This document shows, piece after piece, positions 1 to 6,230 of a stretch of DNA of 6,230 nucleotides. A program made the translations under genes and the position numbers. Positions within the stretch are counted from its first letter, which is position 1. Every line of letters starts with the position of its first letter. Source of the stretch: Candidatus Vampirococcus lugosii (GTDB lineage: Bacteria; Patescibacteriota; Gracilibacteria; Absconditabacterales; Absconditicoccaceae); NCBI RefSeq assembly GCF_018420025.1, contig NZ_JAEDAM010000074.1, forward strand, positions 1 to 6,230. Direction: 5' to 3'. The notes below the pieces were generated by a model. That model saw only the letters and a list, made by a program, of their open reading frames with translations, was not told the DNA's origin and searched no databases.

Positions 1-1
1 T

Positions 2-430
2 AAAATACCAGTGATAGTAAAAGAAAATAATTGGGTTCCAGTTAATAATACAAATAGTGATTGATCTTCATTTATTGTATTATGAGATAATAGTGAGATT
101 GTAAAAAAACAAGATGGAACAATCTTATCAGGTGATAGTTTGGATGATGTATTTGTTGAAGTGAATGAATATAATATGGAACAAGGTATTAGTCGAAAGA
201 CTTCATGTGTAAAGCTAATATCAGAAGAAGTTTGTAAAAATTTGGACCCAGATAATAATACAGTACTATTATATGATGATAACTGGAATAAACAGGGTAC
301 TTTAGAAGACTGTTATGAAGACGAGTTTACTTATGTTTTTGACACTGCATCTTTTAGTTTTCCTATCGATGACGACGATCCTATTTATGGAGATTATACA
401 CAATGACGGTTGGCTTGTATACGAAAATAG
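2..430 (+). CDS. hypothetical protein, 5'-truncated at window edge (C-terminal 142 aa)
   Basis: Frame 2 is open from base 2 to TAG 428-430 once TGA at 62-64, 83-85 and 404-406 is read as Gly. Track ORF 140..406 is only an internal piece (TTG pseudo-start, TGA pseudo-stop). The translation ends ...DTASFSFPIDDDDPIYGDYTQGRLACIRK*. It is acidic, has several Cys, and contains no domain I recognise. There is no in-frame ATG near the 5' end, so it presumably continues upstream of the window. Confidence 0.7.
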
Positions 431-444
431 AAAAAGTTTCTATT
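426..444 (+). terminator. weak AT-only hairpin overlapping the stop codon; possible terminator
   Basis: aatagaaa (426-433) and tttctatt (437-444) form an 8-bp perfect inverted repeat with a 3-nt loop, followed by a T-rich stretch (gtgtttcttaaattttt). All pairs are A:T, so stability is low. Such hairpins arise easily by chance in this composition. Confidence 0.2.
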
Positions 445-478
445 GTGTTTCTTAAATTTTTGGGCGAGTAAAAAATAT

Positions 479-718
479 TTATTTTGTAGTAGTGAGTATT
501 ATTGTGTTTTCTTTTGAAATTATGATTTTATTTGTAAGTTTATATAATTTATCATACATATTTTCTACATAATTAAAAATTTCTTGTTCAAAATTTTTTA
601 AATTTAACAATTCTTTTATATAATTCATTTTATTATATTTTATTAATTTTAAACTATTTAAACTTAATTTTAATACCTCCTTTATACATGTTTTTTTATA
701 AATTTCCACTAATTCCAC
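479..718 (-). CDS. doubtful small hypothetical protein (79 aa, Lys/Asn/Ile/Leu-rich)
   Basis: This is a track ORF with a GTG start at 718-716 and a TAA stop at 481-479, with no in-frame TGA. An alternative GTG at 709-707 lies 5 nt after AGGTGG. About 80 stop-free codons is non-trivial in DNA this AT-rich, and the sense strand is A-rich like the other genes. Against it, the sequence is low-complexity, the start is non-ATG, and nothing is recognisable. Confidence 0.3.
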   Translation of the reverse strand: MELVEIYKKTCIKEVLKLSLNSLKLIKYNKMNYIKELLNLKNFEQEIFNYVENMYDKLYKLTNKIIISKENTIILTTTK

Positions 719-834
719 CTTTTTTATTTATTGTTTTTATTATTTCTTAATTAACTTTTCAAAGTTTTTTTATCTTTATTACTGCATAAGATTAGGTTTT
801 TAATGTTATTATTACATTTTATATATTATTACTA

Positions 835-862
835 TTGAAAAAAAAATAATTATTTTTATAAT
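835..862 (+). promoter_or_regulatory. sigma70-type promoter candidate for the pilin-like gene
   Basis: TTGAAA (835-840), a 16-nt spacer, then a perfect TATAAT (857-862), ending 33 nt before ATG 896. AT-rich DNA yields many -10-like hexamers, so this is suggestive only. Confidence 0.4.
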
Positions 863-895
863 ACATATTGTTTATTTTTTATATAAAAATATATA

Positions 896-1354
896 ATGAT
901 TAAATTTATATTCAAATTTATATTACTTATTCTCTTTCCTTTTTTTTCGTTTTTTTCATTTTCTTATGCTCAAGATGATTGATGATGAGATACATGATGA
1001 TGAGATACATGAGATTGATGATGATGAGATACATGAGATTGATGAGGATGAGAATGTGATTGAATTGAATTAAATACTAATGTACCTTTTATTCGTAAAT
1101 GTCTAGAAAAAGAAAATGCTGATACTGCTTTTCCTAAGCTTATGGGATGATTATCAAAAATTGTAATTACTTTTACATTAGTAATAGCTTTTTTGATGGT
1201 AGTAGCAGGTTGAGTTTTGATTACTATGAGTTGAGCAGATCAATCAAACTTTTCAAAATGAAAAGAATTAATAATTAAAGTTATAGTATGAATAGTACTT
1301 TTGGGATCTTCATGAGTTATATTATATATGATAAATCCAAATTTCTTTTCATAA
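896..1354 (+). CDS. secreted TrbC/VirB2-like pilin (CPR 'type IV secretion system pilin' type) with N-terminal Gly/Asp/Thr repeat
   Basis: ATG 896, TAA 1352-1354, 152 aa, 22 in-frame TGA codons. Translation (TGA=G): MIKFIFKFILLILFPFFSFFSFSYA|QDDGGGDTGGGDTGDGGGGDTGDGGGGECDGIELNTNVPFIRKCLEKENADTAFPKLMGGLSKIVITFTLVIAFLMVVAGGVLITMSGADQSNFSKGKELIIKVIVGIVLLGSSGVILYMINPNFFS. It has a hydrophobic signal peptide with an SYA|Q cleavage-type site and a Cys pair. Two hydrophobic helices follow, joined by a short polar loop (SGADQSNFSKGKE). This matches the architecture and the 'aGGvl..sG......K..i...ivGl' pattern I recall for TrbC/VirB2-type pilins common in CPR genomes. The family call rests on pattern recognition, not a search. 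Confidence 0.75.
980..1057 (+). repeat. in-frame tandem repeat, (TGA)n-rich, encoding GGGDT / GDGGGGDT units
   Basis: tgatgatgagataca occurs at 980-994 and again at 995-1009 (identical 15-mers, each GGGDT). Next comes tgagattgatgatgatgagataca at 1010-1033 (GDGGGGDT). A diverged copy, tgagattgatgaggatgagaatgt, lies at 1034-1057 (GDGGGGEC). All unit lengths are multiples of three. Confidence 0.9.
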
Positions 1355-1382
1355 AAAATTTATAATTTAATAAAAAATCTTA

Positions 1383-1778
1383 ATGGAAATTAAAAAAATA
1401 GAAAATTGATATATTTTGACAAACAATATTTTTTATTCACATAATGAATGATTAGATTGATATATTAACCTTTATCAAAATATTGCTGAAGATTTTGTTT
1501 ATGGTAAATCTGATATAGTTAAAATAAATTATCCTTGAGAATATGATATTTCTGATATATACATAAAATGTATACAATCAAATATAAAACTTAATTATTA
1601 TGTAAAAAATGATCAAAATTCTTTTTGTATAATTCAATCTGAATCCGTTTTGGATAAAGATGAATTTCAAATTGCAGACTATATTTTAATATCAAATGAA
1701 ATAGAATCTTCTATAAAATTAAAAATGGAAAAAAATGAAATAAAATCTAAACTAATATTATTGGAAAATATAGTTTAA
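1383..1778 (+). CDS. hypothetical protein (131 aa), probably co-transcribed with the pilin-like gene
   Basis: ATG 1383, TAA 1776-1778, 4 in-frame TGA codons (the first at 1407-1409). It starts 28 nt after the pilin stop with no hairpin in between. Translation: MEIKKIENGYILTNNIFYSHNEGLDGYINLYQNIAEDFVYGKSDIVKINYPGEYDISDIYIKCIQSNIKLNYYVKNDQNSFCIIQSESVLDKDEFQIADYILISNEIESSIKLKMEKNEIKSKLILLENIV. There is no signal peptide or TM segment. The stretch PGEYDI...NYYV...(L)DKDEF..ADYILIS is faintly reminiscent of the central part of small MBL-fold (Lactamase_B_2/UPF0173-like) proteins, but the metal-binding His residues are absent. I do not assign a function. Confidence 0.65.
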
Positions 1779-2358: not shown

Positions 2359-4224
2359 ATGTGAGAAATTTCACCAAATAGTAATGTAAATATAAATTTG
2401 AAGAAAAATATAAATGTAGAAAAAAAGAATAATATAAAAGTATCTACAAAAGTCAAGAAAAAAGAGTTCCCAGTAAGAATTTGAAGTTTATTATGATTAG
2501 AACAAGTTGGTCAATGTATATTTATTGAGTATAAAGATGATATAATAATTGTAGATGCAGGTATGGAATTTGCAGCAGATGAAATTTTGTGAGCAGATTA
2601 TTTAATTCCCGATATTACTTATTTGAAAAAGAATAAAAATAAAATTAAATGAGTAGTATTAACTCATTGACATCTTGATCATATATGAGCTTTGAGACAT
2701 ATATTACCAGAATTGGATTATCCTACTGTTTATACTACTCCATTGACTTTAGGAATAGTTAAGAAAACATTTAATAATGCAAGTGATGCAAATAAAGTAA
2801 AAAGTAAAATAGTAAATCCAGATAGTGATATAATCAAACTTTGATGTTTTAGTATAGAATTTGTTCCTGTAAATCATAATATTCCAGAAACTTTGGCATT
2901 AGCAATTCATACTCCAAAAGGTTTAATATTTAATTCTGCTGATTTCAAAATAGATTATACTCCAGCTATAGATAAACCAGCTGATTTATGAAAAATAGCT
3001 AGAATATGATTAGAATGAGTAAGATTATATATATGAGATTCTTTATGATCTGAAAGAAAATGATGGGCTATATCTGAAAAAGTTATTTGAGAAAATTTGG
3101 AAAATATAATAAAAAATGCTAGATCTAGAATAATACTTGCTACTTTTGCTTCAAATATCGGTAGGATAATACAAATAATTCAAAATGCTATAAAATATGA
3201 TAAAGTTATTTTTCTAGAATGAAGATCTATGATAAATAATGTAGAAATTTGTCAAAAACTTTGATATCTTGATGTTCCGAGATGATGTATTCGTAAATTA
3301 AGTGCTGATGTTGATAATATGCCACCTGATAGGGTTGTTATTCTTTCTACTTGAGCACAATGAGAAGAATTTAGTGGTTTGGCTAGGATATCAAGATGAG
3401 ATCATACAAGTTTTAAATTAAGAAGAGATGATACTGTTCTTATGTCTGCATCTACTATTCCTGGTAATGAACAGAGTGTATGAAAAATGCTTAATCATTT
3501 GGTAGTACAAGATATTAATTTAATTACAAATTCTGAACTTGATATTCATGCTTCTTGACATGGTTATCAAGAAGATCATAAACTTATGTTGAACTTGATA
3601 AAACCTGATTATTTTATGCCTTTTTATACAGATGCAAGACTTAGATATAATCATAAAAAAATTGCATTAGATATGGGTATGCAAGAAAAAAATATTTTGA
3701 TGCCTGCATTAAACTGAAGTGTTATAGAAATGTATGATGATGAAATTCTTATTTCAAAAGAAAAAATAGAGCTTGATACTGTTATGGTTGATGGTAAAGG
3801 AATATGACATCTTTCTGGTGAATATGTTATGAAAGCAAGAAAAATTATGTCAGAAAATTGAATTTTTGCTTTAATATTCAAAATTGATTCTATCAATAAA
3901 GAATTAGTTGGGAATATTCAAATAGAATCTAGAGGATTTGTTTATTCTTCAGAAGTTAAAAAAATTCATACTAATGTAGTAGAATTCGCCAAAAAAAGAT
4001 ATTATGAACTTTTGAAAAGAAAAATGTCTACTAAAGAAATATTAAAAAGTATAAAAGATGATTTATGAACATATTTATTCAAAATATTGTGAAGAAGTCC
4101 TATGATTATGCCAATGTTTGTTTATATAAATAGAGATGTTTCTTGAAATTATGATGATGATATAGATGCAGAAGATTCTTTAGTATGAATGACTCTAGAA
4201 GAACAAGGTTGAGATTACAAATAA
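2359..4224 (+). CDS. rnj: ribonuclease J (metallo-beta-lactamase / beta-CASP RNase), 621 aa
   Basis: ATG 2359, preceded by in-frame stops at 2326 and 2332. TAA 4222-4224. The reading frame is continuous with about 31 in-frame TGA codons and no TAA/TAG. Diagnostic segments (TGA=G) are: VRIGSLLGLEQVGQCIFIEYKDDIIIVDAGMEF; KGVVLTHGHLDHIGALRH (HxHxDH, 2662-2688); FVPVNHNIPETLALAIHTPKG; NSADFKIDYTP; YIGDSLGSERKG; VILSTGAQGEEFSGLARIS; DIHASGHGYQEDHKLMLNLIKPDYFMP; VDGKGIGHLSGEYVMKARKIMSENGIF; and IQIESRGFVY plus a C-terminal domain. Domain order and motifs match RNase J. The track does not show this gene at all, because TGA interrupts it every ~20 codons. Confidence 0.93.
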
Positions 4225-4642: not shown

Positions 4643-5812
4643 ATGTTGAACAAATTTAAAACAGATTATTCTCCTTTATATTTTTTAGCTTCTTTATGAG
4701 CTTGAGGTTTATCAGTAAGTTTTTTTATGTATCTTATGTTTTTGACAAAACATGAAAATACTCCTATACCAACTTTTGATAGTATTATGAGTGTTTTGCA
4801 AAGTTCAAATTTATTTATGCTTTTAATGATTGTTTTAGTTTATTTATTAATAACTATATTTGCTATAATTCATATCAAACTTTTGATAACGAATATCAAG
4901 AATTATATTTATTTTAAACAAACTCAATCTTTTTCAAAATTAAAAAATTCAAATGATGAAGTTATACTTATGAGTATTCCTCTTACCTTGACTATGACTA
5001 TGAATGTTTTATTTGTTGTTTCTACATTATCTATTCCTAATTTATGGTCTTTTATAGAATATATATTTCCTTTTGCTATATTTTGATTCTTAATTATATG
5101 ATTCTATGCTTTAAAAATTTTTTGAGATTATTTTACAAGATTAATAGTAAATTGAGATTTTGATTTTACCAAAAATAATTCACTTTCTCAGATGATATCT
5201 ATATTTGCTTTTTCTATGATTTGAGTTTGATTAGCTTGACCAGCTGGTATGTCAAATAATTTATTTACATCTTGATTTGCTATGTTTTTTTCTATACTTT
5301 TTATAGTTATTTCTATGTTATTAACTATAGTAAAACTTACTATTTGAATAGAATCTATATTTAAAAAATGATTAAATATTCAAGCTTCGCCTTCTTTATG
5401 GATTATGATTCCTATTCTTACTCTTTGGTGAATAACTTTTATTAGACAAGAACATTGAATATCTACAAATTTTAATTTTCATACTCCAGAAGTTGTTTTA
5501 TTTTATATAAGTTCTGTAATTATATCATTACAAATTATATTTTGATTATTGTGATATAAAGTTATGAAAATTAATAAATATTTTAAAACATTTATTTCTT
5601 GATCTGAAAAATCTCCTGCTTCTTATGCACTTATATGTCCATGAGTTGCATTTGTTGTATTTGGTTTTTTCTTCTTACATAAAGGTTTAGTTTTGAATTG
5701 AATAATAGAGCAATTTAGTGTGATTTATTTTGTAATATTATTTTTATTGTTTATATTGCAAATTAAAACAATAATTGTTATGTTTAAATTAAATAAAAAA
5801 ATGATAGGTTAA
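4643..5812 (+). CDS. polytopic membrane protein, TehA/SLAC1-like (tellurite-resistance/dicarboxylate transporter, TDT family) candidate, 389 aa
   Basis: ATG 4643, with an in-frame TAA at 4628-4630 just upstream. TAA 5810-5812. There are 19 in-frame TGA codons, and track ORF 4727..5086 is an internal fragment. The protein starts MLNKFKTDYSPLYFLASLGAGGLSVSFFMYLMF and shows about ten hydrophobic segments. Segments resembling TehA-type landmarks from memory: N-terminal Y-F-x-x-x-(L/M)-G-x-G-G-L; ...DEVILMSIPLTLTMTMNV (cf. 'sp.rfsf.alip.ttm'); ...ASPSLWIMIPILTLWG; and SPASYALICPGVAFVV near the C-terminus (cf. 'lWaFsFPlga'). The membrane-protein call is solid. The family call is tentative. Confidence 0.85.
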
Positions 5813-5969: not shown

Positions 5970-6230
5970 TTAATGATTTCCCAAATCTTCTCAGATCATT
6001 TTTTTCCCGCCCGGGCGGGAAAAATCAACTACTCCTAATTTATATAAACTATTATTTGAAATAATAAATCTATTTTTCCAATTTATTTTATACAAAAAAA
6101 GATATTGTCTAATAATATCTCTAGTTTGGGATGACAAAGATTTCCAAGTAGTTTTATTTGAACTAATTCTATAATAATAATAAAATCAAAATTGTAATTT
6201 ACGAAGTTTTTTAATCTTTTTTTTCAAATT
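5970..6230 (-). CDS. hypothetical protein, 5'-truncated at window edge (C-terminal 86 aa)
   Basis: The minus-strand frame starting at 6230 is open for 86 codons (2 TGA as Gly) up to TAA at 5972-5970. That is unlikely by chance at this AT content. Translation: NLKKKIKKLRKLQFGFYYYYRISSNKTTWKSLSSQTRDIIRQYLFLYKINWKNRFIISNNSLYKLGVVDFSRPGGKKMIGEDLGNH*. I do not recognise the family. Confidence 0.6.
6001..6024. repeat. 24-nt perfect palindrome TTTTTCCCGCCCGGGCGGGAAAAA with a 14-nt all-G/C core
   Basis: The core cccgcccgggcggg (6006-6019) is its own reverse complement. It is flanked by a T-run (5999-6005) and an A-run (6020-6024). It lies inside the minus-strand CDS, encoding S-R-P-G-G with the codons tcc cgc ccg ggc ggg. 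Confidence 0.95.

Follow-up and report, generated by a model that had tools for sequence, protein, structure and literature searches.

Directly downstream of a predicted signal peptide in Candidatus Vampirococcus lugosii, a predatory bacterium of the Absconditabacteria (SR1), lies a short stretch of codons in which TGA, read as glycine, occurs sixteen times. The locus raises the question of what kind of protein carries such a run, how the run arose, and whether its codon choice or its length serves any function. The tract was picked out in an earlier reading of the letters alone (hereafter the sequence-only reading), which took the gene to encode a TrbC/VirB2-type pilin, regarded the run as a stringent test of the recoding and an extreme demand on UGA decoding, and raised the idea of a surface-exposed tip that varies in length by slippage. 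Here we have analysed the whole 6,230-nucleotide stretch of contig NZ_JAEDAM010000074.1 in which it lies (the window), together with 81 related loci from which 97 family genes were re-translated with code 25. The organism, its code and the exact translation of the protein were all public beforehand.

Results

TGA is read as glycine throughout the window

The genetic code was fixed with the RNase J gene of the window (positions 2,359–4,224, forward strand; Pfam RNase_J_b_CASP, 1.8e-40), whose 31 TGA codons were translated as X before the product was aligned to solved RNase J structures. Of these TGA sites, 27 can be aligned to B. subtilis RNase J1 (3zq4), in which 17 correspond to Gly and none to Trp. 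The matches to Gly include the catalytic HGHxDHIG motif, where both TGA codons of THGHEDHIG fall on Gly. Since the RNase J TGA codons align with conserved Gly residues, it is clear that code 25 (TGA = Gly) applies to the window, as the sequence-only reading had maintained. The same assignment is stated in the species description of V. lugosii, for which Prodigal table 25 was used (PMC8080830).

TGA is present throughout every gene of the window, the G+C content of which is about 20%, and it accounts for 62 of the 88 Gly codons (about 70%) in the five ORFs other than the one studied here. The probability of finding at least 16 TGA codons among the 17 tract Gly codons is about 0.02 under assumed codon independence, which the tract Gly codons do not possess, because they are copies of one another. 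TGA is thus not rare in this genome and its excess in the tract is mild, so that an "extreme demand on UGA decoding" is an overstatement; nor can a run of the major Gly codon be called a stringent test of the recoding. ARAGORN detected no tRNA in the window. Set against code 25 as it operates in SR1/Absconditabacteria and Gracilibacteria, the tract is the same in kind and only its local TGA density is at the top. It illustrates the code clearly, and nothing new is learned from it about the code.

A single reading frame runs from the signal peptide to the membrane hairpin

The whole gene (896–1,354, forward strand, stop codon TAA at 1,352–1,354) is a single code-25 ORF for a 152-residue pilin-like protein, and its translation is 100% identical to a V. 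lugosii "hypothetical protein" at NCBI (MBS8122335.1 / WP_213349777.1). One ORF thus joins the signal peptide, the tract, the Cys motif and two hydrophobic helices ending in INPNFFS, which agrees with the frame proposed earlier. The signal peptide MIKFIFKFILLILFPFFSFFSFSYA (896–970, forward strand) has a mean hydropathy of 1.7–2.25 over residues 1–25, falling to about −1 beyond, with the small residues S and A at the −3 and −1 positions. From this hydropathy and the −3/−1 rule, cleavage is predicted at SYA|QDD, and [YF][AG][QDE] is aligned at the cleavage position across the homologues.

The Cys-loop motif, C54-DGIELNTNVPFIRK-C69 (1,055–1,102, forward strand), is strongly conserved in 25 homologues, with C54, L59, N60, T61, V63 and P64 invariant and C69 at least 90% conserved. 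It is followed by the C-terminal membrane hairpin (1,127–1,351, forward strand), which consists of AFPKLM, a first transmembrane segment, the loop SGADQSNFSKGK, a second transmembrane segment and INPNFFS, with hydropathy maxima at residues 86–110 and 126–145. An AlphaFold2 (AF2) model run with the 25 homologues (mean pLDDT 67) contains helices at residues 2–22, 72–111 and 116–146 and short strands at 56–58 and 69–71. Residues 23–51 have pLDDT values below 50 and no secondary structure, and are predicted to be disordered. The structure modelling called for in the sequence-only reading therefore yields a disordered tract with two long helices after it, and the tract would be a floppy, strongly acidic N-terminal tail of the mature protein after Sec export. 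By the positive-inside rule, the K-rich inter-helix loop suggests a cytoplasmic location for itself, and the mature N terminus with the tract is therefore predicted to lie outside the cell. Topology and surface exposure are inferences here, as are the cleavage site, assembly into a pilus and whatever function the tail may have.

Anatomy of the tract

The tract (974–1,063, forward strand) comprises 30 codons, or 28 if counted from the first TGA at position 980, and encodes DDGGGDTGGGDTGDGGGGDTGDGGGGECDG in the code-25 reading. With 16 TGA codons and one GGA, it runs (GAT)2 (TGA)3 GAT ACA (TGA)3 GAT ACA TGA GAT (TGA)4 GAT ACA TGA GAT (TGA)2 GGA TGA GAA TGT GAT TGA. Tandem Repeats Finder reported a 15-nt unit in 2.2 copies (100% match, 980–1,012) and a 24-nt unit in 2.9 copies (93%, 985–1,053, score 117). 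In the register of the sequence-only reading, the tandem-repeat core (980–1,057, forward strand) consists of two identical copies of the 15-mer TGATGATGAGATACA at 980–994 and 995–1,009, followed by two 24-mers at 1,010–1,033 and 1,034–1,057, so that the tract is much as it had been described, the 24-mers being the same at 19 of 24 bases and not identical. The codon of the conserved Cys sits within the second 24-mer. All of these units (15 and 24 nt) are multiples of three.

TGA density was scanned across the window and the 81 related loci in ORFs of 120 codons or longer (about 400,000 ORF codons). The highest count per 28 codons was 16, in this tract, and 99.9% of the 28-codon windows hold six TGA codons or fewer.

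An antisense ORF of 131 codons (964–1,359) with a His/Ser-rich tail at its end was taken as a by-product of the repeat. RTX and thrombospondin-type calcium-binding repeats were considered for the D/G-rich tract and rejected, since it lacks the hydrophobic position and has no Pfam match. Cation binding by the acidic tail in this hypersaline organism would be pure speculation.

The hairpin is a divergent relative of the VirB2-like pilin domain

The protein has a pilin-type layout, with a signal peptide and then two hydrophobic helices separated by a short polar loop (hydropathy and AF2). Its direct match to the Pfam family T4SS_pilin (PF18895) reaches 19.4 bits for the full protein (E = 1.1e-3) and 21.1 bits for the core, below the gathering threshold (GA) of 26.6. 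Many database homologues have been mistranslated with code 4 and carry Trp in place of Gly. One public collection holds the V. lugosii gene itself in this form (DDWWWDTWWW, entry P0002), and most of its homologues in that collection are affected likewise. Such mistranslation weakens the detection of the family. The closest orthologue (L002), for example, had to be translated correctly before its score against PF18895 rose to 24.8 bits, and 10 of 27 corrected core domains match PF18895 at E ≤ 1e-3. The threshold itself is passed by proteins of two loci, L072 (32.9 bits) and L073 (31.0 and 30.0 bits for L073a and L073b), which are standard-code relatives that share the ILYxINPNFF end and group with Peregrinibacteria. 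An hhalign comparison of the SR1 core alignment with this group of Peregrinibacteria relatives gave 99.2% probability (E = 1.8e-19, 71 columns). By its homology to these threshold-passing members, the hairpin is therefore a divergent relative of the VirB2-like T4SS_pilin domain of CPR bacteria, at the level of remote sequence homology and below the curated threshold.

Other searches added less. Weak direct matches were also found to TrbC and to an NCBIfam family of pilin-like conjugal transfer proteins, the latter being marginal (NF045849, two of 25 members, E = 0.009). Foldseek searches of the AF2 model against the PDB gave no match at E ≤ 0.001 and returned generic helical hairpins only, the best pilus match being the non-significant 8dfu (E = 5). 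Two family alignments, A1 and A2 (the latter being the SR1 core alignment), were used as profiles against PDB sequences, and neither gave a match below E = 0.1.

The genomic setting differs from that of many CPR pilins. No type IV secretion system (T4SS) genes were found by Pfam in the window, nor within 10 kb of the gene in L002, L080 and L081. The gene lies in a conserved housekeeping neighbourhood, in contrast to CPR pilins that stand beside virB4: four further SR1 lineages share the order YqeY, pilin-like gene(s), an ORF of about 133 residues, O-methyltransferase (on the opposite strand), RNase J and YceG. The downstream partner ORF of the window (1,383–1,778, forward strand, 131 residues) has no Pfam match and shares 46%, 33% and 31% identity with its counterparts in L002, L080 and L081, respectively, each of which immediately follows the pilin-like gene(s). 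A preprint on Patescibacteria T4SS, in which a pilin gene was found near virB4 in 1,135 of 1,948 assemblies (10.1101/2025.01.22.634366), points out that many CPR pilin genes stand away from virB4; adjacency to it is therefore not strictly defining. The assignment to a TrbC/VirB2-type pilin is thus carried by the transitive homology to proteins that pass PF18895, whereas the protein's own score of 19.4–21.1 bits against 26.6 and the lack of nearby T4SS genes speak against it. In the window as a whole, no RNA family was found with Rfam, and a promoter scan gave 71 sites against 65 expected, which is uninformative in so AT-rich a window.

The N-terminal region of the family is hypervariable and repeatedly Gly-rich

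A profile of the family collected 249 cluster representatives at E < 1e-30; at E ≤ 1e-3 the number rose to 2,690. The matches are 104–694 residues long, and the conserved domain is always C-terminal. In the 71 code-corrected genes whose N termini are complete, Met1 and the core Cys lie 24–587 residues apart (median 117); in V. lugosii the figure is 53, and only eight of the 71 genes are that short or shorter. Paralogue arrays are present in 10 loci. The view that a Cys motif placed close to the signal peptide is the usual layout, from which V. lugosii would depart, holds for its nearest relatives alone (5–15 residues between the two) and does not describe a family whose N terminus varies so widely.

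The closest orthologue (L002/L003) was checked for the tract, as the sequence-only reading had advised, and has a short homologous linker in the same frame, A|DGGGESGGSD-CDGIELNTNVP, with the linker codons GGT TGA TGA GAA TCA GGG TGA TCA GAC. Since a small linker is already present there, the V. lugosii tract is best read as an expanded G3-[DE]-[ST] element.

Comparable repeats occur elsewhere in the family. Ranked by TGA density across all loci, the top five stretches lie without exception in the N-terminal region of this pilin-like family, the four after V. lugosii being those of L001 (a second V. lugosii assembly), L052, L022 and L027. In L022 the repeat is (TGA TGA ACG GAA GCA)n, or GGTEA, with 15 of 15 Gly encoded by TGA, which makes up only 39% of the Gly codons of that locus. 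In L027 it is (TGA TGA AAY AAY ACC)n, or GGNNT, with 10 of 10 against 60% in the locus. L057 carries 12 copies of GGA TGA GAA GAA ACC (GGEET), and L052 has GGGNGGGGGEA in its N-terminal region. With Gly-rich repeats in several lineages, the V. lugosii tract is therefore not a singular oddity and is one extreme instance of a recurring theme.

Repeat copy number changes between strains of a relative

In the second V. lugosii assembly (L001; Logan, SRR13241708, which we assume to stem from the same V. lugosii project), 99.89% identical over 3,498 nt, the tract has the same length as in the window and agrees with it at 87 of 90 bases. Three of the four differences between the assemblies cluster at 1,047–1,050 (forward strand), where GGA TGA GAA is replaced by GAA GAA GAA (GG to EE) at equal length, and they may represent polymorphism or amplification error. 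Three consortia supplied the V. lugosii genome, each as a pool of about 10 cells whose DNA was amplified by MDA (V7 and V8) or MALBAC (V12) (PMC8080830; PRJNA678638). No further Vampirococcus population came to light: metagenomes scanned with the V. lugosii protein yielded only distant relatives of the Peregrinibacteria type, and the protein clusters of P0001 and P0002 were singletons.

A change in copy number was observed in another SR1 species. There the positional orthologue, which bears the GGNNT repeat, comes in forms of 411 and 406 residues within one 90% cluster, and each length is found on both SNP backgrounds. At the nucleotide level, exactly one 15-nt unit separates L027 from L085, L086 and L087, and it is the sole indel in 2.7–3.3 kb at 98.6–98.9% identity. 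Whole-unit copy-number change in the TGA-rich Gly repeats of this family is thus real, and the slippage proposed for V. lugosii is supported in principle by this one-unit change between strains of a relative, while in V. lugosii itself the tract is equally long in the two assemblies.

Discussion

The tract is, in our judgement probably, a lineage-specific in-frame repeat expansion of a pre-existing Gly-rich acidic linker in a pilin-like membrane protein, serving as a flexible spacer or tail. On one side of it is the putative signal-peptidase site, on the other the first of the conserved cysteines, in what would be a small secreted protein inserted into the membrane. The ancestral linker probably resembled that of the closest orthologue, DGGGESGGSD, and copying of 15-nt and 24-nt units, whether through replication slippage or through unequal recombination, would have brought it to 28 residues. 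That it is written in TGA follows from TGA being the majority Gly codon of a code-25 genome with about 20% GC, and also from the TGA/GAT microsatellite being A+T-rich and slippage-prone. Once the protein has been exported by Sec and cleaved at SYA|QDD, the tract would be its disordered, strongly acidic mature N-terminal tail, on the extracytoplasmic side according to the topology predicted from the K-rich loop, and most likely a flexible spacer with little sequence constraint. As a sequence, the tract is what a known code and a strong A+T bias would lead one to expect when a microsatellite expands in a hypervariable linker.

Repeat number and sequence might instead change rapidly within populations, as at contingency loci, with selection preserving this because an exposed tail contacts the prey or host. 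Several observations point in this direction: one 15-nt unit varies between strains that are 99% identical, with both lengths on both SNP backgrounds; three of the four differences between the V. lugosii assemblies over 3.5 kb fall inside the tract; Gly-rich repeats stand at the same position in several lineages; and variable tandem arrays of CPR VirB2-like pilins (10.1101/2025.01.22.634366) have their counterpart in the paralogue arrays of the 10 loci described above. However, the V. lugosii tract has one length in both existing assemblies, neutral slippage would equally yield one indel in one species, and the clustered substitutions could be MDA/MALBAC amplification errors. Filament formation and host contact by this protein would, moreover, be a supposition. 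On balance we regard such a hypervariable tip as unlikely. A broader conjecture along the same line, that TGA-rich five-codon Gly repeats (GG-x-x-T/A) form a recurrent, selected and fast-evolving exposed module of an Absconditabacteria-specific VirB2-like branch, their length and charge tuning prey contact, seems to us a doubtful one at present. Recurrence of the repeats in independent lineages could nevertheless mean that the tail is selected for a function and is not a neutral spacer.

The dense run of UGA might itself be functional and slow or gate translation through the supply of the UGA-reading glycine tRNA, for instance as an aid to Sec targeting. No other stretch in the roughly 400,000 codons scanned is as dense in TGA as the tract, which lies directly downstream of the signal peptide, and all Gly codons of the L022 and L027 repeats are TGA, well above the share in their loci. 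Yet TGA is the commonest Gly codon here, so that it is unlikely to be slow, and copying accounts for uniform codon choice inside a repeat. In addition, the repeats of L022 and L057 are far from the signal peptide, GGA and TGA alternate in L057, and the orthologue L002 lacks the expansion; translational gating is thus very improbable. Equally to be weighed is whether the tract is an artefact of assembly or amplification, or goes untranslated in the Gly frame because another frame or a downstream start is the real one. The origin of the genome from amplified pools of about 10 cells and the disagreement of the assemblies at 1,047–1,050 would fit an artefact, and in code 25 the tract can be read through in each of the three forward frames, the other two reading MIDDEIHDDEIH... 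and MMRYMMMRY.... Nevertheless, two independent assemblies share the tract length and 87 of the 90 bases, and at 90 nt the tract is shorter than the 125-nt reads that were used. The DDEIH frame, named in the sequence-only reading as a possible refutation, ends at the TAA at 1,069–1,071 and cannot be connected to the flanks in the Gly frame except by two compensating frameshifts. A downstream start would lose the invariant C54...LNTNVPF...C69 motif, and the Gly frame of the orthologue encodes a short homologous linker. We give hardly any credence to these explanations.

The relationship to known systems can be described from two sides. With the CPR VirB2-like pilins (PF18895; PF04956, TrbC/VirB2), the V. 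lugosii protein has in common the signal peptide and the C-terminal two-helix hairpin, and its family likewise forms tandem arrays of paralogues of low identity; unlike the PF18895 pilins, it falls short of the gathering threshold. The SR1 branch further differs from the CPR pilins by a module of its own, C-x-G-I-x-LNTNVPF-x-G-x-C together with a fixed INPNFF C terminus, and by N-terminal ectodomains of up to about 590 residues, far larger than classical VirB2 or TraA. On the other side stand surface proteins with simple sequence repeats, such as those encoded by the contingency loci of Neisseria and Haemophilus and the repeat-length-variable surface lipoproteins of Mycoplasma. The present gene likewise has an in-frame repeat in its exported N-terminal part, and in the SR1 relative the copy number shifts between near-identical strains. 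In contrast to contingency loci, its units are whole codons (15 and 24 nt in the window, 15 nt in the relatives), so that a change in their number always leaves the reading frame intact and there is no on/off switching by frameshift.

VirB2-like pilins are widespread in Patescibacteria, often in variable tandem arrays, and this variability has been discussed as host adaptation (10.1101/2025.01.22.634366). A useful by-product of the present analysis is an SR1-specific VirB2-like branch with a fixed core (Cys loop and INPNFF), a hypervariable N-terminal ectodomain and conserved synteny, together with direct evidence for copy-number change of its Gly repeats between strains. If the protein belongs to the host apparatus of these epibionts, its variable region would be a sensible place for determinants of host range; and should the repeats prove to be a selected module, the V. 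lugosii tract would be the most extreme hypervariable tip for host interaction in a predatory CPR bacterium.

Repeat variation in the N-terminal ectodomain

The positional orthologue of the pilin-like gene in another SR1 species carries an (ACC TGA TGA AAY AAY) repeat (L027:4110-4184), and comparison of this repeat with its counterparts in L085, L086 and L087 showed a difference of exactly one 15-nt unit at a strain identity of 98.6-98.9%. Both the 411-aa and the 406-aa forms of the L027-type orthologue were found in each of the two SNP backgrounds.

Between the two V. lugosii assemblies, three of the four differences over 3.5 kb are grouped within 4 nt at the tract (window 1047-1050, L001 285-288), where they change GGA TGA of the window into GAA GAA of L001. 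These clustered differences could be a real polymorphism or an error of whole-genome amplification.

Low-complexity tandem repeats are also present in the N-terminal ectodomain of other members of the family, namely GGTEA (L022:5785-5889), GGEET in 12 copies (L057:4271-4456), GGGN... (L052:5839-5898), AGQGAAGAAST in three copies (L060:5887-5985) and TTPPSNTG in three copies (L006:5668-5829). These are independent low-complexity tandem repeats; several of them have a five-codon period, G-G-x-x-T/A, which may reflect shared ancestry or convergence.

Translation of the tract in databases and on the opposite strand

The V. lugosii gene itself (L001:134-592, equivalent to window 896-1354) is present in a public protein collection as P0002, translated with code 4, and its tract there reads DDWWWDTWWWDTWDWWWW. 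Most of the homologues retrieved (P0003-P0025) likewise have Trp at the TGA positions, which reduces their Pfam scores. On the minus strand, a 131-codon ORF (window 964-1359, code 25) covers the entire pilin-like gene and has a His/Ser-rich tail, HQSHVSHHHQSHVSHHHVSHHQSS, that is the repeat read in reverse; this antisense ORF is most likely spurious.

Gene neighbourhood and tandem paralogues

Directly downstream on the plus strand lies a 131-aa ORF (window 1383-1778) that has no family assignment and is conserved at 46%, 33% and 31% identity. Since its counterpart in other SR1 genomes always stands immediately after the pilin-like gene or genes, it may be their functional partner. Other SR1 genomes (L002, L080, L081 and L085) share one gene order here: YqeY comes first, then the pilin-like gene(s) and the ~133-aa ORF, then a methyltransferase on the minus strand, RNase J and YceG. 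In V. lugosii the YqeY side (window 1-895) is replaced: positions 2-430 hold the end of an ORF rich in Cys and Asp, and a small ORF lies on the minus strand at 479-727.

Elsewhere in the window, a polytopic membrane protein of 389 aa with 19 TGA codons (4644-5812, plus strand) gave no Pfam match at E<=0.1. A perfect 14-nt palindrome of G+C only, CCCGCCCGGGCGGG (6006-6019), stands between a T-run and an A-run, where the surrounding DNA has only ~20% GC, and looks like a bidirectional terminator hairpin; it was missed by the scan because no loop of at least 3 bases remains.

Divergent paralogues of the family occur in tandem, two or three per locus, in L015/L080, L012, L045 (three in each of these), L031, L011, L028, L037, L039 and L043, and a long form whose ectodomain terminates in CCEGILLNTNVPF is recurrent among them. 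Such tandem sets resemble the VirB2-like arrays, variable in make-up, that have been reported from other CPR bacteria.
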